Of a stretch of 56,618 nucleotides of DNA, positions 2,447 through 56,618 are shown one piece after another; position 1 is the first letter of the stretch, and every line of letters begins with the position of its first letter. Below the pieces are notes generated by a model that did no database searches, was not told where the DNA came from, and saw nothing but the letters and a program-made list of their open reading frames with translations. The stretch is from a virus. Lineage: Duplodnaviria > Caudoviricetes. Where the stretch lies: the IMG/VR virus record IMGVR_UViG_3300043353_000072, positions 1-56,618 of that record. The stretch is one strand, 5' to 3'. The translations under genes were made by a program, and so were the position numbers.

Positions 2447-2622
2447 GACTGCGCCTCCGGCTGGTGCACGACATGCCGCACGCGGCCGTCAGGCAGCGTC
2501 ACGTTAAACGGCGGCGGTCCCATGGGTTTGAGGCCCGGCCCCTTGGGCAGCCTGATCCAGCCTTCCTCGGGGTGGATGTAGCCCCAGGGCAGGCCGTCAT
2601 CGGTTTCCGAATCGTCGCTCAT
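2443..2622 (-). CDS. small hypothetical protein
   Basis: MSDDSETDDGLPWGYIHP...; 4-nt overlaps on both sides. Confidence 0.55.
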   Translation of the reverse strand: MSDDSETDDGLPWGYIHPEEGWIRLPKGPGLKPMGPPPFNVTLPDGRVRHVVHQPEAQS

Positions 2623-3320
2623 GCGCGTGCTCCTTCCACGATCAGATACCGGCCCAGCCCAGGCAGAACCCGCGCCACCAGCGGCTCGGCGGCCATCAGC
2701 GGCCAGGGCAGCAGGGAGAACGCGGACACGCGCGTGACCTGGAAGCCGGCCAGCGTCAGGCGCCCCCGGGCCTGCCACGGGCACCACGCGGCCGGCGCGG
2801 TGTTGAGGTGGACGGCGCCCTCCTGGCGGACGTGCCCCGCGTACCAGCGCGGCGCGTTGACCATCAGCAGCACCCGGCCACCACGCGGCAGGACGCGCCG
2901 GAGATTGCTCAATGCCGTCACGGGCGCCGTCACGTAGGACAGCGCGCAATACAGCGACACCACGGCCGCCAGCCGCGGCAGGTCCTCGGGCAGCGGCTCG
3001 CAGACGTCGCCCTGGCGGAAGTCCGCGCGGGGGAAATTGCGCCGCGCCACGTCCAGCATGCCGGCCGACACGTCCAGCCCCGTGTAATCCTCCACGGGCC
3101 AGTCAGTCAGGCGGAGGAAATTGCCGGTCCCGCAGCCCACGTCGAGCACCGTCCCGGGTCCGACGCCACGCAGGAAGCGCCGCAGGTGGCGCGCCAGCAG
3201 CCGGTCCTCGGCCCGGCCCACGGCGTTGTCGAACATTTTGTCATAGCCGGGCGCCAGCCCGTCATAGGCGAACGCCACCGGCGGCGGCGGGCCGGCCTCA
3301 ATCCTCCGCACGTTCTGCAT
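2619..3320 (-). CDS. class I SAM-dependent methyltransferase
   Basis: VLDVGCGTG motif I, TGLDVSAGML motif II, QGD, RVLPRGG. Confidence 0.85.
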   Translation of the reverse strand: MQNVRRIEAGPPPPVAFAYDGLAPGYDKMFDNAVGRAEDRLLARHLRRFLRGVGPGTVLDVGCGTGNFLRLTDWPVEDYTGLDVSAGMLDVARRNFPRADFRQGDVCEPLPEDLPRLAAVVSLYCALSYVTAPVTALSNLRRVLPRGGRVLLMVNAPRWYAGHVRQEGAVHLNTAPAAWCPWQARGRLTLAGFQVTRVSAFSLLPWPLMAAEPLVARVLPGLGRYLIVEGARA

Positions 3321-3768
3321 AAATCCCCTCCACCCGTTCCAGTGCGTCGATGAACGCCGTCTGCGCGGCATAGGTCGTGGTGGCGCGCCGCCTGCCGATC
3401 ACGCGCCACGACAGGTCCAGGACGATGACGGCTTCCAGCAGCGCCATCTCGGGCCCGAGCACCTGGGCGACGCGGCGGAGCCGTTCCTGGGCATCCAGCA
3501 GGTCATCGGGTGGCGTCCGCGCGCCCGGCGTGACGCCGGACATGACGCCGCCGAAGGCCGGTGGCGGCAGGCCCGCCACGCGCTCGAAATCGTTTCTGAA
3601 ACGACCGGCCGCCGCGTAAATCTTCTGTGAAATCCTGGCGTTTTCGAACAGGCGGTCCAGTCGCGTGAGGACGGTCCAGCCGGTGCGACGCGCCTGTCGG
3701 TCTACCCGCGGTTCAAGGACCGCATGGTGTCGGATGAACTCAGCCGTGGGACGGGCTGATTGGCGCAT
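3298..3768 (-). CDS. putative late-transcription regulator (DUF6456-like, C-terminal HTH)
   Basis: LDRLFENARIS..YAAAGRF pattern and LLEAVIVLDLSWRVIG; Q-like position upstream of late genes (inference). Confidence 0.45.
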   Translation of the reverse strand: MRQSARPTAEFIRHHAVLEPRVDRQARRTGWTVLTRLDRLFENARISQKIYAAAGRFRNDFERVAGLPPPAFGGVMSGVTPGARTPPDDLLDAQERLRRVAQVLGPEMALLEAVIVLDLSWRVIGRRRATTTYAAQTAFIDALERVEGIYAERAED

Positions 3769-9654: not shown

Positions 9655-9936
9655 GTTCGATGCTCCCCTGGTTGCTCGCGTGGCGCCCGCTCGATCAGGA
9701 ATCCCGGAAATCAACGTGCGTCGGCTATGAGAAGGGGACCGCGAATGGACGTCACATCGGAACAGGGGGCTGATCCAGCCGTCAAAGTATCGCGCCCGTC
9801 AAGGCCGGCGCACGGGGGGACCTGTCCGGCTGTCAGCCGGAAGCCTGTCACGGGAGGGTCATTGATAAGAGAAACCGCAGTCCGAGACACAGAAAATGAT
9901 ATTGATCTGACGTTCACGACCGACAGCGGGGAGCGG

Positions 9937-10656
9937 ATGGCGGTGCAGGCCAAGCGGTTCCGAACGAAACTAACCGTCCGGCGCACCACGCCGCGCGCCG
10001 ACGCGGATAACCTGGCGCGGACATTCGCCACGCCGGGGGAACGGTTGCGCGCGGTGCGCCTGTTGCGCGGTCTGTTCACCGCGGCCGATGCCGCCCACGC
10101 GCTAAAGGTCCCGGCCGTCACATACCGCGCTCATGAGCGAGGCATCCGAACGCTGGAACCAGAAGTCGCCAGACGGTACGCCAAATTTCTCGATGTGAAC
10201 CCGGATGTAATCCTTTATGGCGATGACGCGGTGGTGTTCCCCGACGCGGTGGGCCGGCGCGTTTTTTACAGCTTCGACGTGGCAGGCGTGGTCAACCGTT
10301 TCGGCCGCGTGGAAGCACTGACCGAAGGCGTGGTCGTGCCGGATGTGAAAGCGGAACGGTTCATGCCGGATGATCGGTTGAGCATGGTGCTGGTGGACGC
10401 GGACGAACTCGCGCCGGCGTATCGACGCGGTGACATGGTGTTCCACGATCCGCTGTTGCGCATTGCCGATCTGCCGGACCTTGACAGATGCGACGCGGTG
10501 GTCCGGGTGAACACGTCGCGCGTGTTCCTGGCGTTCATAACGCGGGCGAAACGCGACTGGATCGTGGAAGTGCCCGGCCAGTCCGAGCCGCGTACCCTGC
10601 CAATATTCGCGGCCGGCCGCGTGCGTTGGGTGCGCCGGGGGATAAGTCCCGGGTGA
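9937..10656 (+). CDS. CI-like repressor (XRE HTH plus degenerate S24-like C-terminus)
   Basis: GERLRAVRLLRGLFTAADAAHALKVPAVTYRAHERG; LAPAYRRGD; divergent from the replication operon. Start uncertain. Confidence 0.75.
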   Translation: MAVQAKRFRTKLTVRRTTPRADADNLARTFATPGERLRAVRLLRGLFTAADAAHALKVPAVTYRAHERGIRTLEPEVARRYAKFLDVNPDVILYGDDAVVFPDAVGRRVFYSFDVAGVVNRFGRVEALTEGVVVPDVKAERFMPDDRLSMVLVDADELAPAYRRGDMVFHDPLLRIADLPDLDRCDAVVRVNTSRVFLAFITRAKRDWIVEVPGQSEPRTLPIFAAGRVRWVRRGISPG

Positions 10657-17681: not shown

Positions 17682-17699
17682 CGAAGGAAACTCCAACCG

Positions 17700-17759
17700 G
17701 CCCGGGCTGTATTGCCCGCGGCACGCCCTCTAATTAGGCCACCGTTGCCGCTCGGTCAA
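17700..17759 (-). promoter_or_regulatory. early promoter-hairpin cassette, copy 1
   Basis: TTGACC-17-TAATTA then GCCGCGGGCAATACAGCCCGGGC. Confidence 0.8.
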
Positions 17760-19433: not shown

Positions 19434-19442
19434 CGGGAAATG

Positions 19443-19482
19443 TGATGCCAACGTATGATTACATCAACATACGTTGGCATCA
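19443..19482. repeat. perfect 15-bp inverted repeat, 10-nt spacer
   Basis: tgatgccaacgtatg-N10-catacgttggcatca. Confidence 0.9.
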
Positions 19483-19495
19483 TGATGTCATGCCG

Positions 19496-21531: not shown

Positions 21532-21546
21532 GGTGTGGTCCTCTGT

Positions 21547-21605
21547 GCCCGGGCTGCATTGCCCGCGGCTGAACGTATTTAGGCCAAGGTTGCCGGTAGT
21601 GTCAA
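21547..21605 (-). promoter_or_regulatory. early promoter-hairpin cassette, copy 3
   Basis: TTGACA-18-TAAATA then GCCGCGGGCAATGCAGCCCGGGC. Confidence 0.8.
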
Positions 21606-22121: not shown

Positions 22122-22808
22122 TCAGCCCGCCGCATGCTGGACGGCCGCCACGCCGGCCGGCGTGAGGGACAGCTTCGACTTGGTCTTGGTCGCCATGGCG
22201 GTGACGATCAGGCCGCGCCGTTGCAGGGCGTTCAGCACGCCGGGGACCTGGCGCGGCGGCAGGGCGTGCGGCGTCGGGCTGTCATTGAGCGTCGGGTAGA
22301 GCACCCAGGCGTCCGCTTGGCCGGCGCAGTCGGGGTGGTCATACACGGCCACCAGCACCCGCAGGTGCGCGTCCGGCAGCAGCCCGGGCTCGGCCGCCGG
22401 CGCGGGCTTCGGCGCCACCACGGGAGCGGGGACGGGCTCCGCCACGGGAGCGGCCGGCGCCAGGCCGGTCAGCGCCTCGCAATGGGCCAGCACGGCGGCC
22501 GGGCGGAGGCCCAGCGGCGTCACGCCGGGCAGGGCAGGGACCTGCGGCGTGGGCTTCTTGCGGAGGAATGGCACCAGCACGTCATCCTCCGAGGCGCCGT
22601 TCAGCACGTCCCGGACCTGGGAGAGGAACACCAGGCCGCCCTGGGTGGGGGAGGCCTCGTTCGCGGCGGTGGCGCGGAGGCTGAAACCGCCCTCCACGGG
22701 TGCGACCTCCCAGGCGTCCGCGCGGAGTTCGCCGGCGGAAACGGCCTTCAAGAAATCGCGCTTGCAGTTGGATTTCTGCGTGTAAACCTTGGAAACGTTC
22801 ATGGTCAT
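22122..22808 (-). CDS. hypothetical protein with C-terminal wHTH-like region
   Basis: VLNALQRRGLI...LSLTPAG; first gene after cassette 4. Confidence 0.6.
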   Translation of the reverse strand: MTMNVSKVYTQKSNCKRDFLKAVSAGELRADAWEVAPVEGGFSLRATAANEASPTQGGLVFLSQVRDVLNGASEDDVLVPFLRKKPTPQVPALPGVTPLGLRPAAVLAHCEALTGLAPAAPVAEPVPAPVVAPKPAPAAEPGLLPDAHLRVLVAVYDHPDCAGQADAWVLYPTLNDSPTPHALPPRQVPGVLNALQRRGLIVTAMATKTKSKLSLTPAGVAAVQHAAG

Positions 22809-22818
22809 GGTCCTGGCT

Positions 22819-22881
22819 GCCCGGGCTTCATTGCCCGCGGCTGGATGTGTATTTAGGCCAAGGTTGCCGGTGAGTATAGAC
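22819..22881 (-). promoter_or_regulatory. early promoter-hairpin cassette, copy 4 (atypical -35)
   Basis: CCGGCAACCTTGGCC-TAAATA then GCCGCGGGCAATGAAGCCCGGGC. Confidence 0.75.
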
Positions 22882-22954
22882 CCAATCGTTACGCCTTGAG
22901 CGCATGCCCGGCATGTGATTGCAATCCATCATGACATGATGATACGTTGGCATC

Positions 22955-23596
22955 ATGATGCTAACCCTGGTCATGGCAAGTCAGAAAGGCGGCGTGGGCA
23001 AGACCATGCTCAGTTGCGCGCTCGCGGTGGAGGCGAGCCAGCGCGGGTTCTCGCGCGTGGCCCTGCTGGACCTGGACGAACAGAACGCCTCCACCCGCTG
23101 GGCCATGAAGCGCGAGGCCGCCGGCATGCCCGGCGTCACGATGGTGTCCGGCCGGCGGAGCGGCCACCTTCGCGCCACCGTCACGGGACTGGGCCGGGAC
23201 GGGTTCGACCTGCTGGTGATCGACACGCCGCCGGCGGTGTCCCGCGTGGCGGCCGACGCCATGGCGGTCGCGGACCTGGTGGTGGTCCCCGTCCAGCCGT
23301 CGCCCGATGACGTGGAAGCGGTGGGCGCGACCATCGAACTCGCGGAGCGGTCCGGCGCGCGGACGGTGTTCGTGCTGAACCGCGTCAAGCCCAGGGTCGC
23401 GCTGACCCGGGAGTCCATTATCGCCTTGTCCCAGGGCGGCCCGGTGTCCCCGGTTATGATCTGGGACCGGGTGGTGCACGCCGAGGCCCGCATAACCGGC
23501 CGGGTGGCCGGTGAGCTGCGCCCCGGTGGCAAGGCCGCCGAGGAAATGGCCGCTCTGTGGCTGTATTTGTCCGATCAGTTCAAAAGGAAACACTGA
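22955..23596 (+). CDS. parA: short (type Ib) ParA partition ATPase
   Basis: QKGGVGKT deviant Walker A, DLDEQ, IDTPP; no N-terminal HTH. Confidence 0.9.
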   Translation: MMLTLVMASQKGGVGKTMLSCALAVEASQRGFSRVALLDLDEQNASTRWAMKREAAGMPGVTMVSGRRSGHLRATVTGLGRDGFDLLVIDTPPAVSRVAADAMAVADLVVVPVQPSPDDVEAVGATIELAERSGARTVFVLNRVKPRVALTRESIIALSQGGPVSPVMIWDRVVHAEARITGRVAGELRPGGKAAEEMAALWLYLSDQFKRKH

Positions 23597-27619: not shown

Positions 27620-29002
27620 TTACACGCCCGCGACAGGCAGCCAGGACGTGCCGCCCTGGCCGATGTAAATCCGGGTGCCCACTCCGCCATCGTTGCGCAG
27701 ATAAACCGAGCCGGATGGCATGCTGGCGGTGGGCGCGCCCGCGCCGACGCTGAGGGACGGGCCGGTGACGGCGAATTGCAGCGCGCCCGCATCCGTGAGG
27801 CGCATCCGCTCGCTCACGAGTACGGATGGAGCCGAGCCGATCGGTGCGGTGTGGAAACTGATGTACGCGCCCTGCGCTGTGTCCGTGAAATTCTCGGCCG
27901 CGCTGAAAGCGATCCTCGCGCGCTCGTTGCCCGAGAAGCCCGCCGGGCTGGAACCGTAGGCGCGAAACGCCATGAACGTGTCGTTGAGCACCGAAGCCGT
28001 TCCGGGATAGAGGCCAGTCGCGCGCCGCCCGTCGAAAAAGACTGAACCGCCATAGGCGTCGTGCACCAGCCGCACATTGCCGCCATTGCCCGCGATATAC
28101 GTTACGGTCGCGTTGGGGAGCGTGGGAACTCCCGGCCAAGGATTGACCCCGTTCCGAGACAGCAACACGAGCGGCGCGGTCGTGTTGGTGGCGATCAGCG
28201 TCGGGAGAACCAGCCCACCCGTGCCGGATGCCGCGAGCGTCGCGGGATCGGCGGCGGTCAAGCCAGGGGTCAGCGACACCACGTTGCTGGTGCCCGTCAG
28301 GCCGACCCGGAGCACACCCGCGTCCGTGATCCGCGCCCGCTCGATGCCGCCCCCAATCGAACCAATGGGAGCCGTGGAGAATGCGATATAAGAACCCGCC
28401 GCCGTATCGGTGAATGTCTCCGCCGCATACAGGGCGAAATAGCCTCGCGCGTTCGCGAGGTAGCCAGTCGTGCCCCGCCCGTAAGCCTGGATGCCGGCCA
28501 ATACCTGATCCGCGAGAACCGGGGTCGGCGCGGCGGCGGTGCCCCCGGCTCGGCGGCCCGTGAAGAAAGGATTTCCGTTGATGGCGTCGATAACGGCCCG
28601 CGCGTTTCCGCCCGCCGTGCTGAACACGACGAAATTCGAGCCGCCGATATAGGATGCCGGGACAGCCCCCGCCGCGTTCGTGACAACCAGGGGATTCGTC
28701 CCGCCCGTCACCGCTATCGGGCCTGTCATCGTGCCGCCCGCGAGCGGCAGATACGCGCCCAGCCCCGCGTCGACGTACTGCTTGGTGGCCGCCTGTAGCG
28801 CCGAGATGGGATCGCCGGCCAGCCGGAGGGCGCCGGTCAGCGTGCCGCCCGTGAGAGGCAGGTATGGCGCGCCGCCGCCGGCCACCGCGTCCATGGCCGA
28901 CTGCAGCGCCTCGATCTCACTCTTGGCCGCGGCGAAGTTGTCCCGGACTGACTGGGTGGTGGGCTCGCCTTCAACGGGCTTGGTCGGATCAATGAACGAC
29001 AT
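27620..29002 (-). CDS. tail fibre/receptor-binding-like protein
   Basis: YLPL.GGT.TG repeats, AATKQYVD, two internal AAE.FTDTA.G.YI.F.TAPIGS..ER.R.TDAG repeats. Confidence 0.7.
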   Translation of the reverse strand: MSFIDPTKPVEGEPTTQSVRDNFAAAKSEIEALQSAMDAVAGGGAPYLPLTGGTLTGALRLAGDPISALQAATKQYVDAGLGAYLPLAGGTMTGPIAVTGGTNPLVVTNAAGAVPASYIGGSNFVVFSTAGGNARAVIDAINGNPFFTGRRAGGTAAAPTPVLADQVLAGIQAYGRGTTGYLANARGYFALYAAETFTDTAAGSYIAFSTAPIGSIGGGIERARITDAGVLRVGLTGTSNVVSLTPGLTAADPATLAASGTGGLVLPTLIATNTTAPLVLLSRNGVNPWPGVPTLPNATVTYIAGNGGNVRLVHDAYGGSVFFDGRRATGLYPGTASVLNDTFMAFRAYGSSPAGFSGNERARIAFSAAENFTDTAQGAYISFHTAPIGSAPSVLVSERMRLTDAGALQFAVTGPSLSVGAGAPTASMPSGSVYLRNDGGVGTRIYIGQGGTSWLPVAGV

Positions 29003-31213: not shown

Positions 31214-31629
31214 GCCGGGACGTTCTGGGCGGTCAGCCAGACCAGCACGCGGGACCCGTCCGCCCGCAGCTCATACACGTCCTTTCGTCCGGCGGCCGAG
31301 GTGGGCACGGGCGCGCCCGTCACCAGGGTCCAGGCTCCCCAGTTCACGGTCCGCGCGGTGCCGTCCGCGATCAGTTCCAGTTGCCGCGTGGTGACGCCGC
31401 CGGCCGGGACGCCGGCCAGGGACAGCGCCACGATGTTCGCGCTGAAATTCACGCGGAACACGCCGCCGGTGGTGACATCCAGCACGAGCGTCCCGGCGAC
31501 TATCCCGGGGGTGGCGATGGCCGGCGTCTGTAGCGCGCCAATCTCCGCCTTGGCCGCGGCGAAGTTGTCCCGCACGGATTGCGTGGTCGGGTCGCCTTCA
31601 ACGGGCTTGGTCGGGTCGATGTTGGACAT
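31210..31629 (-). CDS. short fibre-like protein
   Basis: N-terminus nearly identical to that of 27620..29002. Confidence 0.7.
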   Translation of the reverse strand: MSNIDPTKPVEGDPTTQSVRDNFAAAKAEIGALQTPAIATPGIVAGTLVLDVTTGGVFRVNFSANIVALSLAGVPAGGVTTRQLELIADGTARTVNWGAWTLVTGAPVPTSAAGRKDVYELRADGSRVLVWLTAQNVPA

Positions 31630-50771: not shown

Positions 50772-52790
50772 TTAGAGCCGTCCCAGGTTCATGAAGCGCC
50801 GGCGCAGCACCGGCCGCCGCACGGGCTGGGCCAGTACGCCCGCCTGCGGGGTGGAAGTCGTGGCCGCCGGGTTGACCGGAGGCTCCGCCGGCATCGGCGG
50901 CGGTGGTGGTTCAAGGCCCAGTTGCGTCTCAAGGTCCCGCCAGTGCACGTCGGTCCAGCGGTCCGCCCCGGCCATCCAGACGGCGGCCCGCGCGTAGACC
51001 CGCATGTCCAGGGCCTCGTTACGTGGCCGTAGCTGACGCCACTCGGTTTTGACCGCCCAGCCGCGCCGGCCGCGCACGATGACGCGCTGTTCGGCCACCA
51101 GTTGCTTGATCCACTCGTCATTGAGCGTTAGCGGCAGGTGGACGTAGCCGGCCGGGTAGCCATAGGTCGCCAGATCCGCATCGGTCGGCCGGTCCAGTTG
51201 CAGCAGCTTGTATGTCTCGCTTTTGAAAAACGAGACGCTCACGGTCCAAAGGCTCACGCCCCGCTTGATCCTCCGGCCGTTCTGCGCGACCTCCACGTAG
51301 ACCGGGCCCGACACGGGCACGGAGCGGTCGTATTGCGGGACGCCCTTGACCGCCAGCACCGTGAGCCGGGACTGCTTGCGCACCCAGGCATAGACCTGCT
51401 GGGTGAAGGCGCCGGTGTCGATCGCGAGCCGTTGCAGCACCAGACGCTTGCCCGAGGCGTGCCTCCATGTGGTCGACAACAGGTTGGTCAGGTGTTCCCA
51501 GGTGCCAGCCTCGCCCGGGTCCCCGTAAACGACCATGTGCTCCACCAGCCAGGACTCCAGCCCCCGGCCCCAGGCCCAGACGTCCAGTTCGATCCGGTCC
51601 GCCTGCACGTCCGCGCCGGCGGTCAGGAACAGCCCCCGCATCGGCACGCCACGGAACGGCCAGTCTTCCCGGCGCTCGTAGAGGCGTTGCCAGTCCGGGA
51701 CGATTTCCGCTTCTTCCTCGTACTCCTCGCCCAGCACCGTGTTGATGAAACTCTTGCGTTTCTCAACGTCGTTGATGGAGCCCTCATAGAACGCGACGAC
51801 CTCCGCCCATGACATCCAGCCGATGGGCGAATACAGCGCCGACAGGTGGTAGCCGCGCACCGAGCGGTCATTCGTTTCGGCCGTGGCGCGCCACTCCCCG
51901 CCGGCCAGCATGGCGGTCTTGTGGTGCTCCCGCATGGCGCCGTCGCAGCCCTCGCACTGATACGTGACGGTGCGCGGCTGCCCGGCCTCCCACTTCATGC
52001 GGTTGAAGTTGAGCACCTGCTTGAGACCACAATGCGGACACGGAACGAAGTAGAACCGCTTGTCCGTGGCATCGAATTCACGGGTTATGCGGGACGTGCC
52101 TTTTAGTTTCGGCGTCGATGCGAGCAGTATCTTGGACCGCACGCCGAAGGTGCGCGTGCGCGCCTCGGCCAGCGCCACCGGGTCGCCCTCGTCCTCGATG
52201 TCGCCCGGGTAGGCGTCAACCTCATCGAGCATCAGGTATCGCACTGGCATGGACCGCAGGCCGACAGCGGAGTTGGCGCCGGTGATGATCAGCACGCCGC
52301 CCACGAATTCCTTCATGAGCATGGTGTTCGTTGTGTCCCGCGAACGGTTGCGCGATACCTTGCCGCGCAACTGCGGGGAGTCGTCGATCAACGGTTGCAG
52401 CCGTTGCGTGGAAAAGCGTTTCGCGGTGTCAACGGTGGGCTGCACCATCATGACCGGCCCGGGGACCTGATCCATTATGTAGCCAATCCAGCAAACGCCC
52501 GCTTCGGAGGCGCCAATCTGCGCGCCTTTTTTGAACACCACGCGCCGCACGGGTGACAGCGCGCTCAAACTGTCCATTATTTCCTTGATGTATGGCGCGC
52601 GTGAGGTTCGATATCGACCGGCCTCCGCCGCGCCACGGGATGACAGGATGCGGTAGCGGTCCGCCCATTCCGAGACGGTCAGTTCCGGGTCCGGCGCCAG
52701 CCCCTCGTCCCAGGCCCGGGCCAGGATGTCGTCCGGGTGGAACGGTGGCGGGGTGAAAGGATACGCGGACGTGACGGATATGTCAGTCAC
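50772..52790 (-). CDS. terL: terminase large subunit, GpA family (start uncertain)
   Basis: KGAQIGASE, LRSMPVRYLMLDEVD, STP, CPHC/CEGC, GADVQ, RNEALD. Confidence 0.95.
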   Translation of the reverse strand: MTDISVTSAYPFTPPPFHPDDILARAWDEGLAPDPELTVSEWADRYRILSSRGAAEAGRYRTSRAPYIKEIMDSLSALSPVRRVVFKKGAQIGASEAGVCWIGYIMDQVPGPVMMVQPTVDTAKRFSTQRLQPLIDDSPQLRGKVSRNRSRDTTNTMLMKEFVGGVLIITGANSAVGLRSMPVRYLMLDEVDAYPGDIEDEGDPVALAEARTRTFGVRSKILLASTPKLKGTSRITREFDATDKRFYFVPCPHCGLKQVLNFNRMKWEAGQPRTVTYQCEGCDGAMREHHKTAMLAGGEWRATAETNDRSVRGYHLSALYSPIGWMSWAEVVAFYEGSINDVEKRKSFINTVLGEEYEEEAEIVPDWQRLYERREDWPFRGVPMRGLFLTAGADVQADRIELDVWAWGRGLESWLVEHMVVYGDPGEAGTWEHLTNLLSTTWRHASGKRLVLQRLAIDTGAFTQQVYAWVRKQSRLTVLAVKGVPQYDRSVPVSGPVYVEVAQNGRRIKRGVSLWTVSVSFFKSETYKLLQLDRPTDADLATYGYPAGYVHLPLTLNDEWIKQLVAEQRVIVRGRRGWAVKTEWRQLRPRNEALDMRVYARAAVWMAGADRWTDVHWRDLETQLGLEPPPPPMPAEPPVNPAATTSTPQAGVLAQPVRRPVLRRRFMNLGRL

Positions 52791-53259
52791 GGCATACGCC
52801 CGGGCGCGGGACGTGCCGCACTCCACGGTGTTCGAAGCCGTCCGCGCCGGGCTGATCCAGGCCCGGGACGGCCAGGTGAACGTGGAGGAAACCGACGCCG
52901 GCTGGTACGCCGATCATCTTGCCCGGAAGGACAGGGTGGTCAGCCTGGAAGAATTCCGGGTGCGCCAGCGCGGCGCCTCGGTGGTGGACAGCATGGCCCG
53001 GATAGCCGGGCTCAAGCGGCAGGTGGAACAGATACGCAAGACCACGGCCCTCCGCGGCGCCATAGAGCCGGCCGCGACGCGCCGTGCCAGCAGGCTCCGC
53101 GCCGCCCTCGGCGTCCTGCCCACGCTGCACGCCCTGGAAGCCCTGGAAGGCCTGCGGACCCAGCCCGACACCGCCCAGGCGGTGCTGGAACGGTTCGCCG
53201 CCCGGTTGGCGGCGGACCTGGGCGACCTGGACGTGCCCTACCGGGCGCCGGACGGATAA
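52780..53259 (+). CDS. terminase small subunit-like protein 1 (with HTH)
   Basis: MSVTAYARARDVPHSTVFEAVRAGLI...DG.V....D..W. Confidence 0.65.
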   Translation: MSVTAYARARDVPHSTVFEAVRAGLIQARDGQVNVEETDAGWYADHLARKDRVVSLEEFRVRQRGASVVDSMARIAGLKRQVEQIRKTTALRGAIEPAATRRASRLRAALGVLPTLHALEALEGLRTQPDTAQAVLERFAARLAADLGDLDVPYRAPDG

Positions 53260-53263
53260 CCCC

Positions 53264-53722
53264 ATGGCCGTCAGTCCCCAGGACGTTGCCCGCCTCCGCG
53301 CCGACGAGGCCATGCTACGCGCCCAGTACCATCGGCTGCGGGAACAGGTCCGCGCCGGGGAACTGGTGGCCCTGGAACCGTTCAACGCGCATTTGTTCCA
53401 GGAAGCCCGCCGGCTGCGGGATGCCATCCTGGCGGCCCCCGCGCGATACGCGGCGGAACTTGCCGCCGAATTCGACGTCCCGGAGTGGGACATGCTGGTG
53501 GTGCTCAACTCGGCCGCCCGCCGCCTGCTTACGTTGGCCGCCGGGTCGGGTCCGTTTCCCGGGCTCCCGGAGGCGCCAGAGCCAGCCCCGCCGGTTGCCG
53601 CTCCGGTTAAGCGGCGGAAGCGCGCCGCCGCCCAGAGCACCGCGCCGGCGCCGAGGAAGCGGCCGAAACCGAAGGCGCCCCGCAAACGGCGCCGGAAATC
53701 GCCCCGCATGGCCGCCGAGTGA
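53264..53722 (+). CDS. terminase small subunit-like protein 2 (no HTH, basic tail)
   Basis: GELV...F..ARRLRDAIL..PAR.AAELAAE; K/R-rich C-terminus. Confidence 0.65.
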   Translation: MAVSPQDVARLRADEAMLRAQYHRLREQVRAGELVALEPFNAHLFQEARRLRDAILAAPARYAAELAAEFDVPEWDMLVVLNSAARRLLTLAAGSGPFPGLPEAPEPAPPVAAPVKRRKRAAAQSTAPAPRKRPKPKAPRKRRRKSPRMAAE

Positions 53723-53774
53723 CGCCGGAGGCCGAACCAGAGCCGTGTCTGTCGGTTTTGGAATCGCTCAGCGA

Positions 53775-53831
53775 CTAGTGAAATCCCGGGCTGTCCGCCC
53801 CCGCATTGGCTCGAATCGCTCGGAAGGACCC
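53775..53831 (-). other. lambda-like cos site
   Basis: cosQ GGGTCCT, 23 nt, then GGGGCGGACAGC; same spacing as lambda GGGTCCT-N23-GGGCGGCGACCT. Confidence 0.75.
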
Positions 53832-53885
53832 GCGTGAGTTGCGAAGGCCTGAACCACAACCAATGCGTGTGCTGGCGCGAGGCCC

Positions 53886-54305
53886 TCAAACGACCTGCCC
53901 GGGCCGTCTGGCCCTGACCGGCGAGGCGCGCCGGACCGGGTGGCGGGCCATCTCGTAGGCCTCGGCCTCCGCGGCCTGCCGTGCCGTCCGAGCCATGGCC
54001 ACCATGGTCGACGCGGGCAGCCTGCCCAGCGTGGTGCCGGGCAGCAGCGTGAGGCTGTCACCGCACCGCACCAGCCACGCCATGGGACGCAGACCCAGGC
54101 TCGATACGTGCTCCGTATTGAGCCGATGGTCCGCGCGGTGGCGTGGGCTGGTTTGGGGGACAAGCGGGTGACAGAGCCCGGCCTGTGCATCCGTGACCAC
54201 GAACAGGCGTGAGCCAGCCGTGAGCACGTCTCCTGGGTGTACCGTAGGGGGGTCGCCCGCACCTGTGGCGAGCGTGACGAAATTGGTAGGGCCGGTGCGT
54301 TTCAT
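53886..54305 (-). CDS. hypothetical protein, possible PemK/MazF-like fold
   Basis: PGDV..FVV..PL...GL...VRC...LGRLP...M spacing. Confidence 0.4.
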   Translation of the reverse strand: MKRTGPTNFVTLATGAGDPPTVHPGDVLTAGSRLFVVTDAQAGLCHPLVPQTSPRHRADHRLNTEHVSSLGLRPMAWLVRCGDSLTLLPGTTLGRLPASTMVAMARTARQAAEAEAYEMARHPVRRASPVRARRPGQVV

Positions 54306-54330
54306 CCGTCAAGCCCCTTGATGCGCGTGG

Positions 54331-54879
54331 TCACGGCAGGAACGTCTCGGACTGCCGCCCCACTGGCCGGCGCGGGTTTATCTCGGACCTGATGGGCCGG
54401 TGCTGCACCAGGGAGGGGACGTGTAGCCAGTAACGTTCGCGCCTGTCCCCCAAAAAGTCCGCCACCATGAGGTCGAAGCCCGTGGGGTGCTCCACCGCGC
54501 GACGCCAGCCTGGGCGGTAGGCGTGGATGGCGGGCGCGTGGCCGGCCGGCAGGTAGAAGCATTGCGTCATGATGAACGAGCGGCCCGGCATTTCCCTGGA
54601 ACCGAGCCGCGCGTCCGACCGCTTGATGCTGAAAAACTGGATGACCTGCCCTGGGTTTTTGTCGATTTCCGCTTCCACCTTGGCGGTGAAATCCCGCGTC
54701 AGGATGATGTCGTCCTCAAGGTGCACCGTGGGATCGTTCTGGCTGGCCGTCATGGCGTAAAGGAACGTGGTCATGGCGTCGCGCGAGAAGTCCCGCATGA
54801 TTTCCAGGCCGGGAATCCCCGCCGTGAGATCCGGCAGGAAATGCTCACGCTCTCGCACCACGCGCACCAGATACCGCAT
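54331..54879 (-). CDS. GT-A glycosyltransferase (GT25-like)
   Basis: VHLEDD (DxD-type), TQCFYLP, PSLVQH. Confidence 0.7.
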   Translation of the reverse strand: MRYLVRVVREREHFLPDLTAGIPGLEIMRDFSRDAMTTFLYAMTASQNDPTVHLEDDIILTRDFTAKVEAEIDKNPGQVIQFFSIKRSDARLGSREMPGRSFIMTQCFYLPAGHAPAIHAYRPGWRRAVEHPTGFDLMVADFLGDRRERYWLHVPSLVQHRPIRSEINPRRPVGRQSETFLP

Positions 54880-55826
54880 CAGGCCGCCTCCGCCGTCTCC
54901 CGCTGGCAGATGGACAGCAGCCGTTCCGCCGGCCGATCCCCCAGCACCCGCTTGACGATTTCCGCTTCGCTGTCCGCGAACATGAGATTGATCCGGTAGA
55001 ACACGCGGTCCTTCCGTACCAGCTCACGTTCCTCGTCAGTGCGCGCGGCGGCCAGCTTTTGCTCGTGCTCCCGTTGCGCCTCCAAGGCTTGCATCGACAT
55101 GGCGGACGTTATGACGATGCTCCCGTTGTTCACGTCCGAGGCCACCACGGAGGCGCGGCCGTCCTGGTCGCTCCGCGCCTCCGGATTCCAGGCGGCGGTG
55201 TACTCGTCGCCGGCGAGCGCGTCCGGTGCCGGAATGTCCGCCAGCAGCTTCTCAATCTCGGCCTCACTGAGCATGAGACTGTCGGCGGCCCAGTCCAGGG
55301 CTCCGAGTTTCTCAAGGTCCCGCAGCACCTCGGCCGACAACTGGATGTCTTCCGATCCGCGCGCCCGGTTATGCCGCAGCGTGGCGATGCGCATTTGTTC
55401 CGCCGTCATGTCCACCAGCACCACGGGCAACGTCTCCATGCCCAGGGCCGCCGCGGCGCGCCAACGGTGCTCGCCATCGACAATGCGGTGTCCGTCCCGC
55501 TGCACGATGACCGGCTGGGTGAAACCGTCCTCCCGCATGGAGCGCAGCAGCAACTCGAAATCCTTCTCGCTCATGCGGTTGGGATTGTACTCGTTGGGGT
55601 GGATGTCGCTGACCGGCAGGTATTCGATATTGAGCCGTTCCAGCATGATGTTGGTCTTGATGGGCGGCGCGCGTTTGCGTCCCGCCATTCGTTGCGGTCG
55701 CGGTGGATCTGCTGATGGTGGAGCGTGCGCGCCATTGGTTTTCGCGGCGGCCTTGCGCGCCGGTGCCTTGGCTGGTGGTGGTGGTGGGCTCGCCGCTTTT
55801 TTGGCGGCCGTTTGCTTGCGAGGCAT
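54879..55826 (-). CDS. ParB/Srx-domain protein (IbrB/YbdM-like)
   Basis: PNEYNPN, DGFTQPVIV, IVDGEHRW, ATLRHNRARG. Confidence 0.88.
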   Translation of the reverse strand: MPRKQTAAKKAASPPPPPAKAPARKAAAKTNGAHAPPSADPPRPQRMAGRKRAPPIKTNIMLERLNIEYLPVSDIHPNEYNPNRMSEKDFELLLRSMREDGFTQPVIVQRDGHRIVDGEHRWRAAAALGMETLPVVLVDMTAEQMRIATLRHNRARGSEDIQLSAEVLRDLEKLGALDWAADSLMLSEAEIEKLLADIPAPDALAGDEYTAAWNPEARSDQDGRASVVASDVNNGSIVITSAMSMQALEAQREHEQKLAAARTDEERELVRKDRVFYRINLMFADSEAEIVKRVLGDRPAERLLSICQRETAEAA

Positions 55827-55835
55827 ATCGTTTTC

Positions 55836-56618
55836 CTATGTCCAGGTGGGCGCGAAGCCGCCCCATGTGCCCGATCCGGCGCGGAAGAAATCGGGCTCCA
55901 TCGCCCGGTTGCCACCAATGCCGAAGGTTTTGAGTGCGAAAGGGTCGCCATTGTAGAGGGCCAGCGTGAGGGATCGCCAACAGCCCAGGTTGCCGCTGCA
56001 CATATAGCAAGGCCGGCTCTCCGGCAGGTCCGTTGTCGCGTGGTGCGCATGGGTGTGGACAATGGCCTCGCTGACCTTGGCGGCACGCTCCGCCAGCCAC
56101 GCCGCCGGCGCCTCCGCGATGCACTCGCGCATGAACGTGTCGCGCCACGTTTCGCCCAGCCGACGATGCGGCAGGACGCTTTTCATGCCGAACTGGGAAA
56201 TGGTTTTGGCGCCGGGCAGGCGTGTCTCCACGCGGTCGAACCATCGCGGCCATGCCTTGCGCGCCATGGTCAACAGATACACCGAGGCGGAGTTGAGCGT
56301 GGGCGGTGCTATGCGCATGAACTTCATGGGCACGTCGAAACGAACCATGGCGTTGTAGGCCGTGTTGTAATCCCACTTCTGGTCCCGCACCGCGCGCCAG
56401 ACGTCCGCGTCCTGCCAGTCGTAGATGGGCCGGCAGTTGCGCGTCCCGATGACGTTTCGTTTCGTCATGTGACCGCCGGCGGAGAACACGCTGTAGCGCC
56501 GGTTCTGGCTTTCCGACGCGCGAATCCCCATGACGCTGAAAAGGTCTTTGCCCTCCGGCGTGGGATATACCTGCTTCGAAATGATGCGGGTGATGTCCAT
56601 GGCGTCGATATGCGTGGC
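55836..56618 (-). CDS. PAPS-reductase-family (IbrA/YbdN-like) protein, 3' part
   Basis: GIRASESQNR, PIYDWQDADVW, YN.AY, C-terminal CYMC. Confidence 0.85.
   Translation of the reverse strand, partial: ATHIDAMDITRIISKQVYPTPEGKDLFSVMGIRASESQNRRYSVFSAGGHMTKRNVIGTRNCRPIYDWQDADVWRAVRDQKWDYNTAYNAMVRFDVPMKFMRIAPPTLNSASVYLLTMARKAWPRWFDRVETRLPGAKTISQFGMKSVLPHRRLGETWRDTFMRECIAEAPAAWLAERAAKVSEAIVHTHAHHATTDLPESRPCYMCSGNLGCWRSLTLALYNGDPFALKTFGIGGNRAMEPDFFRAGSGTWGGFAPTWT

Follow-up and report, generated by a model that had tools for sequence, protein, structure and literature searches.

The closest described relatives of the locus studied here are the IbrA/IbrB pair of E. coli and its K-12 version YbdN/YbdM, for which a single phenotype, activation of prophage gene expression by IbrAB, has been reported. 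We found no mechanistic paper on IbrA/IbrB (YbdN/YbdM) in the literature, and the reaction of the pair is undefined. In the related field of DNA phosphorothioation, an extract of one paper places DndB in the ParB superfamily (PMC10853773), and extracts of the same and of a second paper give a cysteine dyad as the hallmark of DndC (PMC10853773, PMC12839542).

We analysed a 56,618-nt stretch of DNA (hereafter the window), an IMG/VR record of a soil phage classed there as having direct terminal repeats. A preliminary description of this DNA had proposed that a PAPS-reductase-family enzyme, two ParB proteins, a glycosyltransferase and a methyltransferase act together in a DNA modification that is neither Dnd nor Ssp. 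Here, we report that the core of this locus is a phage IbrA/IbrB module which, judged by sequence comparison, consists of a PP-loop ATP-pyrophosphatase of PAPS-reductase fold and a near-obligate ParB/Srx-HTH partner.

Results

Genome ends and position of the module

End-to-end comparison of the window revealed that bases 1-127 and 56492-56618 are 100% identical, and since both ends share these 127 nt the circle size is 56,491 bp. The 56618/1 junction is moreover read through by an independent contig of run X1, so that the gene cluster crosses the circular junction as first described. This X1 contig of 56,502 nt (56,491 + 11) begins at 53791 and stops at 53801. Runs X3 and X4 likewise yielded contigs that stop exactly at 53801, and the site 53791-53801 is spanned by a relative's contig in run X2. 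These data support, but do not prove, a physical terminus at 53791-53801, where 11 nt overlap (GCTGTCCGCCC, + strand), i.e. a probable cos, about 530 nt downstream of the last gene of the module, which encodes a 182-aa glycosyltransferase (GT)-like protein. The operon had been said to run into cos, and its position beside the site stands, given contig ends in three runs, with cos itself at the strength just given.

The module sits between replication genes and packaging/structural genes. The terminase large subunit (TerL, 50772-52826, - strand) shares 55.9% identity over 90% of its length with the TerL of Rhodobacter capsulatus phages. Two terminase-small-subunit-like ORFs (52780-53259 and 53264-53722, + strand) lie on the strand opposite to both TerL and the IbrA module; the second matches the TerS family phrog_57 (1.1e-10), and RcDormio TerS aligns to 53291-53530 (+) with 40% identity (2.5e-8). 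The additional ORF announced between the GT-like gene and cos is present (139 aa, 53886-54305, - strand) but doubtful, with no PHROG/family match, no homologue in related loci and a GC content by codon position (0.72/0.59/0.80) less gene-like than that of its neighbours.

Organization of the operon

Read leftward on the - strand of the circularised sequence, the genes encode a class-I SAM methyltransferase (MT), a ParB-HTH protein, small ORFs, the IbrA-type enzyme, an IbrB-type ParB (ParBa) and the 182-aa GT-like protein, forming a translationally coupled operon, the last one before cos. In the sequence, ATGA or GTGA stop/start overlaps join five gene pairs and a TGATG joins ParBa to the 182-aa ORF; gaps of 21 nt and 9 nt separate the 160-aa from the 68-aa ORF and the IbrA stop from the ParBa start. 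Both the tight leftward coupling and the domain calls of the preliminary description are confirmed, by the overlapping codons and by Pfam and PHROG matches. The three small ORFs it listed are all present: 160 aa (912-1394, -), ATGA-coupled to the ParB-HTH gene and without match in Pfam, PHROGs, NCBIfam or PADLOC; 68 aa (684-890, -); and 59 aa (508-687, -), ATGA-coupled to IbrA. A fourth of 59 aa (2443-2622, -), which shares an ATGA with the MT stop and a GTGA with the ParB-HTH start, had been missed.

The ParB-HTH protein (351 aa, 1391-2446, -) has a ParB/Srx-like N domain and an HTH (phrog_1033, 7.5e-17; HTH_23, 1.4e-3), and is matched by the ParBa HMM of the module at an E of 9.6e-4 only. 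Neither this protein nor the small ORFs have a counterpart in 83 related loci. They are a window-specific insertion between MT and IbrA, outside the conserved system, and the suggestion that a second ParB and the small ORFs are parts of it is abandoned.

The core pair belongs to the IbrA/IbrB family

The IbrA gene is cut by the window ends. Its N-terminal part (1-511, -, start codon at 511) contains SAGKDS and its C-terminal part (55836-56618, -) a GxRxxES motif and a DUF3440-like domain, with phrog_2302 matches of 2.1e-31 and 6.4e-25, respectively; the halves have 42 aa in common, and after circularisation the whole ORF is 388 aa long. FSAGKDS, GIRASES and CYMC, the motifs from which a PP-loop PAPS-reductase-family enzyme had been recognised, are all found, and the phrog_2302 matches agree with that call. 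Pfam PAPS_reduct gives 18.3 and 20.3 bits on the two halves of this cut gene (cut-off 22.5), and full-length relatives exceed the cut-off (L013, 56 bits; Hendrix gp158, 54.3 bits). DUF3440 (PF11922) is matched in IbrA relatives (4.1e-9 and 1.2e-7) and has nothing at E <= 1 in the window, where the C-terminal domain is too divergent for a direct match. Profile comparison aligns this C-terminal part with the phage IbrA profile A3 (hhalign 99.7%, E 1.2e-26, 220 columns), and A3 with residues 4-373 of E. coli YbdN (hhalign 100%, E 2.9e-42, 342 columns).

The S, G, K, D and S of the PP-loop are invariant across 37 IbrA-family sequences (SAGKDS in the window, SGGKDS in the family). The alignment of these 37 sequences contains no conserved Cys column: the best ones hold Cys in 23/37 and 13/37 sequences, the window having V and N there, and CYMC is not conserved. 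Among solved structures, FAD synthase (5e-7) and CysD (5.3e-6) come closest to IbrA. NCBIfam gave no CysH match on IbrA, and its CysD and LarE matches are far below cut-offs. Among PADLOC models, BrxP (6e-6, 22.7 bits, N-terminal 83 residues only) and DndC (7.8e-4) match the N-terminal part, and no Ssp model matched any of the 10 module and related proteins scanned. Aminotran_5 (PF00266) and DndE (PF08870) gave nothing in the window at E <= 0.1, with the PF00266 control matching 14/14 genomes. The earlier view that the system is neither Dnd nor Ssp is therefore upheld by the missing Cys column, the missing Aminotran_5 and DndE genes, and PADLOC similarities to DndC and BrxP that are weak and at PP-loop level only.

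ParBa (54879-55826, -) matches ParB_N (2.2e-14, 53.7 bits, cut-off 26.3) and phrog_2159 (9.3e-36). It comprises a Lys/Ala/Pro-rich tail, a ParB N domain with NPN, DGEHR and RHNRARG, and an HTH-like segment; NPN, DGxHR and RHNRARG are invariant in alignment A4. The A4 profile, which includes the window ParBa, aligns with E. coli YbdM (hhalign 100%, E 2.1e-50), in agreement with the first designation of this protein as an IbrB-like ParB. By these profile comparisons, the core pair is assigned to the YbdN/YbdM (IbrA/IbrB) family. The closest PDB entries of ParBa are the DNA-binding CTPases Noc and ParB, and its NCBIfam matches to ParB (5.3e-15) and Noc (5.2e-14) are better than those to SerK (1.5e-6) and SbnI (7.5e-3). 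The PADLOC MTase_II models, which describe ParB-MTase fusions, are hit in their N-terminal domain by ParBa and ParBb (2.9e-13 and 3.5e-19), and phrog_498, a family of phage ParB-DNA methyltransferase fusions, matches the ParB type of the module (1.3e-28). Assignment to chromosome/plasmid partition ParB was rejected, TIGR00180 giving 55.6 bits, below its cut-off of 58.45. Kinases of small molecules and of proteins, such as SerK and SbnI, have the ParB/Srx fold as well, a point against a DNA substrate.

Methyltransferase and GT-like protein

MT (2619-3371, -), the first conserved gene product of the module, matches Pfam Methyltransf_25 (6.2e-16), Methyltransf_11 (8.3e-14) and PADLOC mad2 (3.2e-16). 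In the PDB it is closest to a UbiE-related MTase (2.5e-8), followed by sugar N,N-dimethyltransferases of the NDP-aminosugar type (~1e-6), and it belongs with small-molecule or sugar MTases rather than with classical DNA MTases, which also speaks against DNA as the substrate.

The 182-aa protein (54331-54879, -), with 125 homologues, belongs to a virus-restricted family of ~180 aa (Atlas) in which E55-D56-D57 (DxD-like) and a PSLVQH motif with an invariant His are conserved, D57 and H160 being invariant. It is matched by phrog_854 (4.2e-4), and its Atlas model has a pTM of 0.90. Atlas neighbours of this model carry GT25 or GT2 in 12-44% of members; structural neighbours in the Atlas are fused to a sugar epimerase/dehydratase or lie in NTP_transf_3 clusters. 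The name 'GR25 family glycosyltransferase' (JGI, COG-based) is attached to 4 of the 120 GT-like homologues listed. GT25 membership itself was rejected: PF01755 scores 13.1 bits for the protein itself and 12.3 bits when all six frames are translated (cut-off 24), and all 41 family members tested fall below the cut-off, although 6 of the 41 match at E <= 1 (best 8.1e-4), centred on the DxD-like motif. From remote similarity, the DxD-like motif and fusion partners only, we consider the protein a putative GT-A/GT25-like glycosyltransferase, retaining the likeness of the original 'GT25-like' call and not membership in the family.

The GT-like domain also occurs in fusions: it is joined to ParB of ParBa type (P0153) and ParBb type (P0217), to an N6/N4-MTase-like domain (P0236, P0252), to U178 (P0159), to GNAT and to a second GT (Gly_transf_sug DXD domain). 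U178, the cupin-hydroxylase-like usual neighbour of the GT-like gene, resembles Asp/Arg-hydroxylase-type cupins. Such cupins belong to a protein-acting family, again a point against a DNA substrate. The U178 HMM detected nothing in the module region of the window at E <= 0.1; no hydroxylase of this type is thus seen there to make a sugar acceptor on DNA, which likewise counts against the DNA reading. The cluster of Microbacterium phage Hendrix also contains GNAT and a second GT, and Mycobacterium phage Gaia is another carrier of the module.

Recurrence of the linkage in other phages

The preliminary description had named a lack of conserved co-occurrence in other phages as grounds for giving up its proposal. 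IbrA was found in 40 of 47 GT-seeded viral loci, in 38 cases with both genes on one strand and <=2.4 kb apart, and in 23 of the 25 GT-seeded loci with >=4 kb on both sides. The module HMMs came from the very loci on which they were then counted, a point to be held against these tallies. GT-seeded loci further contain the MT family (26/49), U178 beside the GT-like gene (21/49) and an N6/N4-MTase-like gene beside ParBa (8/49), with a terminase downstream on the same strand in 29/49. In the reverse survey, we counted the best 80 of 361 IbrA-seeded loci, with a profile derived from GT-linked loci: whole loci contain ParB in 77, MT in 34, N6/N4-MTase-like genes beside ParBa in 13 and GT-like genes in 9. 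When only genes within 1.5 kb and on the same strand are counted, these best 80 of 361 include 77 loci with ParBa, 46 with a second type of ParB, 31 with MT, 11 with N6/N4-MTase-like genes and 7 with GT-like genes. The linkage is kept across at least four terminase types and dozens of unrelated viral contigs, and exceeds chance; the earlier proposal thus withstands the check that it had named. The GT therefore recurs as proposed, but as an accessory member (9 of the best 80 of 361 IbrA loci), MT being commoner (34/80). In the closest relatives (L059, L060), an N6/N4-MTase-like gene takes its place. In Streptococcus phage CHPC1148, IbrA and IbrB follow the lysis genes and precede cro rather than adjoining the terminase, and the timing of the action to packaging, raised as a possibility in the preliminary description, stays conjectural. 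In E. coli K-12, ybdNM is a chromosomal locus lacking phage context, which, like the reported IbrAB phenotype, also speaks against the DNA reading.

Discussion

The reading that we favour, although we give it somewhat less than an even chance, is that ParB targets a DNA modification which is driven by adenylation, takes place after replication and draws on interchangeable decorating enzymes. We infer DNA as the target from the proximity of ParBa to Noc/ParB, its HTH-like segment, the ParB-MTase fusions and the GT fusions to ParB and N6/N4-MTase-like domains, while adenylyl transfer is suggested by FAD synthase and CysD as nearest solved relatives of IbrA. The steps might run as follows. ParB would clamp on or bind newly replicated phage DNA and recruit the enzymes, and the ATP-using IbrA would then adenylate a DNA oxygen (base carbonyl or backbone phosphate), rendering the position reactive. 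The entering group would not be sulfur, because no enzyme thiol or Fe-S cluster would take part. A methyl would be added by the methyltransferase and a sugar by the glycosyltransferase, roles that GNAT, a cupin-type hydroxylase or an N6/N4-type DNA methylase would fill in other phages; the DNA may in this way be shielded from host nucleases, or marked, ahead of packaging. No thymidylate-synthase-like hydroxymethylase was found in the phage genome, hence the proposal that the module acts after replication. As IbrA has no conserved Cys and the phage no desulfurase, DndE or thymidylate-synthase homologue, the Dnd/Ssp, CysH-type and hydroxymethyl-pyrimidine routes are all unlikely.

The enzymes could instead act on a small molecule or on a protein, such as one of the virion or of the packaging machinery: a ParB/Srx kinase and a CysD/FMNAT-like IbrA would activate an intermediate, and GT, MT, GNAT and hydroxylase would decorate a protein or sugar. 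Several similarities fit, as FAD synthase and CysD adenylylate small phosphate/sulfate substrates, ParBa weakly matches the serine kinases SerK and SbnI, MT is like NDP-aminosugar N,N-dimethyltransferases and UbiE-type enzymes, U178 resembles Asp/Arg hydroxylases and is fused to the GT-like domain in P0159, and GNAT and a second GT occur in the Hendrix cluster. A hydroxylase with a GT25 enzyme is also the logic of collagen hydroxylysine glycosylation. We nevertheless hold this unlikely, since ParBa scores ParB and Noc above the kinases and keeps its HTH-like segment, fusions join the GT-like domain to one resembling N6/N4 DNA MTases, and the ParBa/ParBb domain type is also fused to DNA methylases. 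Decidedly unlikely, in our view, is that IbrA and IbrB are late-gene transcription co-activators doing no DNA chemistry, ParB loading on the DNA and remodelling or anti-silencing it, with an ATP step by IbrA, and GT and MT being unrelated passengers. Phage records label homologues 'co-activator of prophage gene expression IbrA/IbrB', as do SEED-based papers. In lambdoid phages, a late regulator lies between replication and packaging/structural genes, where our module lies too, and the 29/49 loci with a downstream terminase on the same strand agree with such a role. However, catalysis is favoured by the invariant PP-loop and by the enzyme-like set of residues that do not vary in either protein, the GT-like domain is not a passenger because it is fused to the same ParB type, the pair of CHPC1148 is not ahead of late genes, and activation could be a downstream effect of DNA modification.

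Functionally unrelated genes might also have collected at a variable hot spot that lies upstream of packaging, which would account for the varying accessory genes, including the N6/N4-MTase-like gene replacing GT in L059 and L060, and for the unrelated insertion between MT and IbrA in the window. The fusions of GT to ParB, U178, N6MT and GNAT, the overlapping stop/start codons through the operon and the persistence over at least four terminase types make this very improbable. The chance is slimmer still for a divergent phosphorothioation of Dnd/Ssp/BREX-type-4 kind borrowing a host cysteine desulfurase: DndC, SspD and BrxP have the PAPS-reductase fold of IbrA, and DndB is listed in the ParB superfamily in the extract cited above (PMC10853773), but the 37 IbrA sequences contain no conserved cysteine, CYMC included, the genome has no Aminotran_5 or DndE, and the PADLOC matches are limited to the PP-loop region and far too weak for membership. 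We give next to no credence to an auxiliary CysH boosting host sulfur assimilation, despite the Pfam family name. CysH requires a catalytic C-terminal Cys and IbrA has no conserved one, NCBIfam yields no CysH match and CysD-type scores far below cut-offs, and a near-obligate ParB partner (77 of the best 80 of 361 loci) would be senseless for sulfate assimilation. Viral PAPS reductases are nonetheless read in this way in extracts of the viromics literature (10.1101/2021.07.29.453957), and an extract of another study shows a CysH tree containing a DUF3440 clade (10.1101/2021.01.05.425418).

To return to the ParB-targeted DNA modification, a bolder form of it, possible although we would not bet on it, is that IbrA-ParB is the core of a new post-replicative class, a non-sulfur counterpart of DndC/SspD. 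A ParB clamp would deliver a cysteine-free PP-loop enzyme that adenylates DNA, and interchangeable decorators (GT-A glycosyltransferase, alone or together with cupin hydroxylase, class-I methyltransferase, GNAT) would add a glycosyl, methyl or acyl-sugar adduct in phages without hydroxymethyl-pyrimidines. If this is true, the 20-year-old IbrAB/YbdNM pair gets its reaction, and many of the auxiliary metabolic genes that are named 'PAPS reductase / CysH' in viruses carry a wrong assignment.

Comparison with known systems

DndC/DndB, SspD and type-4 BREX BrxP likewise associate a PAPS-reductase-fold PP-loop ATPase with a ParB-superfamily protein, DNA being the presumed substrate. The phage module differs in having no conserved cysteines/Fe-S ligands, desulfurase or DndE and only PP-loop-level similarity to DndC, SspD and BrxP, and in being phage-encoded and linked to glycosyl- and methyltransferases rather than a restriction component. 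In phage ParB-DNA methyltransferase fusions (phrog_498, PADLOC MTase_II), the same ParB N domain type partners a DNA-modifying enzyme, whereas in the window that domain is partnered by separately encoded polypeptides, a PP-loop ATPase and a GT-A-like protein. The hydroxylate-then-glycosylate logic of Base J (JBP hydroxylase and JGT) and of phage hydroxymethyl-base glucosylation is shared by the 21/49 loci with U178 and GT; unlike these systems, the window module region has no U178 and the phage no thymidylate-synthase-type hydroxymethylase, and U178 resembles Asp/Arg hydroxylases, not TET/JBP, a base as acceptor being unsupported. GT25 enzymes glycosylate LPS or hydroxylysine, a further point against a DNA acceptor. 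The LPS and collagen galactosyltransferases among them have in common with the GT-like family the DxD-like motif and weak PF01755 matches, but that family is of ~180 aa and virus-restricted, and its genes are linked to those of ParB and IbrA instead of envelope genes. The nearest system remains IbrA/IbrB of E. coli ECOR-9 and YbdN/YbdM of K-12 (PAPS_reduct and DUF3440 with a ParB-like protein), which have the same two-gene core in the same order, IbrA preceding the ParB, the same motifs (PP-loop and GxRxxES; NPN, DGxHR and RHNRARG) and full-length profile homology; unlike the E. coli pair, the phage pair is part of an operon next to cos that also includes genes for a methyltransferase and a GT-A-like protein.

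Organization of the operon across the circular junction

The preliminary description had proposed an operon running into cos as a candidate modification system, and every gene that it listed was found on the minus strand. Read across the junction, the unit comprises a class-I SAM methyltransferase (2619-3371; Methyltransf_25, 6.2e-16), a ParB-like protein with an HTH (1391-2446; phrog_1033, 7.5e-17; HTH_23, 1.4e-3), three small ORFs without family match (912-1394, 684-890 and 508-687), a PP-loop PAPS-reductase-family gene called here IbrA (start at 511, stop at 55836), an IbrB-type ParB, ParBa (54879-55826; ParB_N, 2.2e-14; phrog_2159, 9.3e-36), and a 182-aa ORF encoding a GT-A/GT25-like protein (GT-like; 54331-54879). 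The three small ORFs were those already described, while a fourth (2443-2622, minus strand), seen in the junction reading between the methyltransferase and the ParB-HTH gene, had been overlooked. The further ORF (53886-54305) is present but lacks supporting evidence, having no family match and no homologue in related loci. ATGA or GTGA overlaps were observed at five gene pairs, TGATG joins the ParB to the 182-aa ORF, and the remaining gaps measure 21 nt and 9 nt. Promoter and terminator scans gave no signal fixing the operon boundaries. The ParB-HTH gene and the small ORFs had no homologue among 83 related loci and are an insertion peculiar to this phage.

Self-comparison of the window showed that bases 56492-56618 exactly repeat bases 1-127. 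Because of this 127-base end repeat and of the assignment of the 56,618-base IMG/VR virus record to the direct-terminal-repeat class, the true circle is 56,491 bp. The two IbrA pieces on either side of the junction have 42 residues in common and match phrog_2302 at 2.1e-31 and 6.4e-25. Logan contigs from four runs (X1 to X4) were used as evidence, and all four runs holding the sequence (4/4) are soil metagenomes. An independent contig from X1 reads across 56618/1 and is identical to the window there; the junction, which by chance lies inside a gene, is an assembly overlap.

Conservation of the gene linkage

The IbrA/IbrB pair is present in E. coli K-12, and cultured phages carrying it infect Mycobacterium, Microbacterium, Streptococcus, Lactobacillus and Flavobacterium. 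IbrA relatives were found in at least 361 IMG/VR stretches. For the 182-aa protein, a word-indexed search returned 125 homologues and an exhaustive search 2,569 cluster representatives at E <= 1e-3, and a scan of bacterial genome contigs with a closer GT alignment found no relatives and pointed to no prophage or host among cultured bacteria.

We clustered all ORFs of 48 IMG/VR loci seeded with the GT-like protein, together with the window (49 loci). The GT-like family was found in 48/49, ParBa in 40/49, IbrA in 38/49, a second ParB type (ParBb) in 34/49, the methyltransferase family in 26/49, U178, which groups proteins of about 178 aa confined to viruses, in 21/49, and an N6/N4-MTase-like family in 8/49. 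With HMMs built from these same GT-seeded clusters, IbrA was detected in 40 of the 47 loci with a full GT match; in 38 of the 40 the two genes share a strand, and their distance never exceeds 2.4 kb. When at least 4 kb was available on both sides, IbrA and ParBa were each present in 23/25 loci. The picture was completed with loci seeded on IbrA, using the best 80 of the 361 relatives. ParBa occurred in 77/80 of them, in all 77 within 1.5 kb on the same strand; the corresponding values for the whole locus and for this short distance were 55/80 and 46/80 for ParBb, 34/80 and 31/80 for the methyltransferase, 13/80 and 11/80 for the N6/N4-MTase-like family, 9/80 and 7/80 for the GT-like family, and 3/80 and 3/80 for U178. 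From these tallies, IbrA and ParB therefore form a near-invariant core, with the methyltransferase as a frequent and the GT-like protein as an occasional partner. The eleven closest IbrA relatives of the window among these best 80 (L053-L063) all show the order methyltransferase-IbrA-ParBa, and in the nearest two loci, L059 and L060 (80-85% and 73-74% identity), an N6/N4-MTase-like gene replaces the GT. The linkage observed in the window is real and conserved.

A terminase lies within the fetched flank in 32/49 loci, downstream and on the same strand in 29/49, and these terminases fall into at least 4 sequence clusters, Terminase_6 and TerL_ATPase types among them. At its right end, Microbacterium phage Hendrix combines IbrA with a GT-like gene (35% identity, 2e-22), another GT, an MTase and a GNAT; TerL, accompanied by three ParBs and an HTH protein, lies at the left end. 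IbrA adjoins a ParB in Mycobacterium phage Gaia, which carries just these two members of the module. The terminase-side position is common and not universal, because in Streptococcus phage CHPC1148 the IbrA-IbrB pair follows the lysis genes, between these and cro.

The core pair belongs to the IbrA/IbrB family

A profile alignment of 27 phage IbrA-like proteins (A3) matched E. coli K-12 YbdN with an hhalign probability of 100% (E 2.9e-42, 342 columns), and an alignment of 27 adjacent ParBs including that of the window (A4) matched YbdM equally at 100% (E 2.1e-50). The C-terminal IbrA piece of the window aligned to A3 over 220 columns (99.7%). Pfam DUF3440 has no direct match in the window while it does match relatives. 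By these profile comparisons, the phage core pair is assigned to the IbrA/IbrB (YbdN/YbdM) family.

A PDB profile search returned no solved structure of any IbrA family member, and the best matches of the IbrA profile were FAD synthase (5e-7), CysD (5.3e-6), PAPS reductase (4.9e-4) and LarE. Among 37 IbrA sequences, the PP-loop S-G-K-D-S and a GxRxxES..R block are invariant, as are Asp, Trp, Tyr and Arg residues extending into the C-terminal domain, and no conserved cysteine column was found. The CYMC motif of the window's IbrA was considered as an Fe-S or catalytic site and rejected, being private to the window. A search for longer proteins containing IbrA gave one fusion (P0261, 736 aa), in which a RadC-like JAB domain (PF04002) accompanies an IbrA-type PAPS_reduct domain.

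The invariant motifs of ParBa are NxxNPN, DG(F/Y)TQP, DGxHR and T.RHNRARG, followed by an HTH-like ICxELGMxxEELxRLKH, and its closest solved proteins are Noc and ParB. The same search for longer proteins with ParBa returned intein-bearing forms only. In the ParBa homologues P0262-P0264 and L055 2729-4333, an insert of about 270 aa interrupts the invariant motif at DG(F/Y)|TQP; it is intein-like, with Cys directly after EDGF and His-Asn directly before TQPV.

Partners of the core pair

The GT-like family conserves E55-D56-D57 and a PSLVQH block. All 41 members tested against PF01755 (GT25) were under the cut-off, six of them reaching E <= 1 (best 8.1e-4), and the window scored 12.3 bits in a six-frame search. 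The JGI name "GR25 family glycosyltransferase" is attached to 4/120 homologues among the matches listed. An ESM Atlas model of the protein is confident, with a pTM of 0.90, and its structural neighbours in the Atlas include viral clusters with NTP_transf_3 as well as actinobacterial proteins in which a sugar epimerase/dehydratase is fused. The putative GT-A fold is assigned from the sequence motifs and the Atlas; a PDB profile search with the family found no relative (best E 1.5, a chance match).

The GT-like domain was also found fused to a ParBa-type ParB (P0153), a ParBb-type ParB (P0217), U178 (P0159), an N6/N4-MTase-like domain (P0236, P0252), a GNAT (P0187) and a Gly_transf_sug DXD domain (P0126, P0127). 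The window lacks U178, which in 21/49 loci separates the GT-like gene from IbrA, for example at 6994-7509 of L015 (in the set L004-L051). An H..HxD...H pattern is invariant in this family, which had no match in a PDB profile search; in its nearest named Atlas clusters, Asp_Arg_Hydrox is found in 25% of members (score 0.95), and U178 is probably a cupin-type hydroxylase. The methyltransferase resembles UbiE-type enzymes and NDP-aminosugar N,N-dimethyltransferases (PADLOC mad2, 3.2e-16), with no resemblance to classical DNA methylases. The fusions and linkages of GT with ParB, DNA-MTase-like, hydroxylase and GNAT domains suggest modification machinery that is modular and guided by ParB.

Possible function of the operon

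We tentatively favour a ParB-guided, post-replicative DNA modification. This reading is argued for by the DNA-binding ParB type, which is elsewhere fused to DNA methylases, by the fusion of the GT-like domain to the same ParB type and to a DNA-MTase-like domain, by the tight translational coupling of the operon and by the kinship of IbrA with adenylyl-transferring enzymes. In this scheme the ParB would guide modification of the phage DNA after its replication; an oxygen of the DNA would be adenylated by IbrA, and the final groups would come from the accessory enzymes. A hypermodified base made at the precursor level is unlikely because neither a hydroxymethylase nor a phage DNA polymerase was noticed.

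A protein or small-molecule target deserves some weight although we consider it rather improbable; it is supported by the kinases and adenylyltransferases among the relatives, by a methyltransferase of the sugar type and by the resemblance of U178 to protein hydroxylases. The name IbrAB implies a transcriptional co-activator, and "co-activator" naming is found in passages of PMC5874904, PMC4490671 and PMC8813620; such a role appears doubtful for the phage pair. Mere co-location of unrelated genes is very improbable. IbrA has no conserved cysteine, which makes both phosphorothioation of the Dnd/Ssp type and sulfite production of the CysH type unlikely. Phosphorothioation fed by host sulfur is hardly credible for this same reason. 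The genome encodes no class-V aminotransferase (desulfurase), DndE or thymidylate-synthase-like gene; the PADLOC matches to BrxP (6e-6) and DndC (7.8e-4) are both confined to the PP-loop region. Viral PAPS reductases are taken as sulfur auxiliary metabolic genes in two preprints (10.1101/2021.07.29.453957 and 10.1101/2021.01.05.425418), as is usual in viromics papers; this is likely a mis-annotation because of the missing cysteine and the near-obligate ParB partner, and we give this role practically no credence here.

The original IbrAB paper is reportedly that of Sandt and colleagues in 2002. A full-text literature search, covering article texts, found no paper giving a reaction for IbrA/IbrB, YbdN/YbdM or DUF3440 and no description of their linkage to glycosyltransferases. 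Sections of PMC12839542 and PMC10853773 treat DndC, BrxP and DndB, a portion of PMC9068703 concerns the repression of ybdNM by CitR, the pair being derepressed in an E. coli K-12 strain deleted for citR, and part of one preprint places PAPS reductase and ParBc genes within defence-like clusters. The core belongs to a known family, a widespread pair and an old puzzle, and the GT- and methyltransferase-extended phage form and its fusions appear undescribed. Should DNA be the substrate, phages would have in this operon a new way of hypermodifying their DNA, and its enzymes might also serve as new tools.

The probable cos site and comparison with RcDormio

The X1 contig is 56,502 nt long, that is the circle plus 11 nt, starting at window position 53791 and ending at 53801. 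Contigs from X3 (193 nt) and X4 (151 nt), with no differences, both stop exactly at 53801, and the site at 53791-53801 is spanned by an X2 contig of a slightly different relative. Because three runs share one coordinate and one contig equals the circle plus 11 nt, 53791-53801 is probably a cos with an 11-nt overhang, although contig ends carry less weight than raw reads. On the plus strand the 11 bases in common read GCTGTCCGCCC, and their complement starts with GGGCGG, like the lambda cohesive end. Some 530 nt separate the GT-like gene from the probable cos downstream of it, in support of an operon running into cos. Just next to the probable cos overlap is a 13-nt inverted repeat (53797-53809 / 53860-53872, 85% complementary) containing CCAATGCG, which may be a terminase-binding element.

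The window has a G+C content of 68% and no tRNA genes were found in it. Its early region holds a repressor-like gene (9727-10656, plus strand), a RuvC-like gene and a replication-initiator gene. In the small-gene region, a 41-nt direct repeat occurs three times (17689-17729, 21536-21576, 22808-22848) and a 48-nt repeat with a palindromic core twice (19440-19487, 22913-22960); both may be operator or regulatory sites. A 105-nt direct repeat of 82% identity (28898-29002 / 31525-31629, 2.6 kb apart) lies in or beside large minus-strand genes of the structural region.

TerL is 55.9% identical to that of Rhodobacter capsulatus phages such as RcDormio, a kinship which suggests an alphaproteobacterial host. 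At the left genome end of RcDormio (L134, 1-5000), the first gene encodes a ParB-like nuclease-domain protein and is followed by three reverse-strand genes, TerS and TerL; a tblastn search of the window at E <= 0.01 gave no match to this protein. Looking for an invertible TerS segment, we scanned 52300-54600 for inverted repeats and found just short imperfect pairs. TerS and TerL share a strand in RcDormio, whereas in the window TerL (50772-52826) is on the minus strand and the small-terminase-like ORFs (52780-53259 and 53264-53722) are on the plus strand, aimed at cos and away from TerL, an arrangement on which two independent assemblies concur. RcDormio has a single TerS of 209 aa, in contrast to the two ORFs of 159 and 152 aa in the window.
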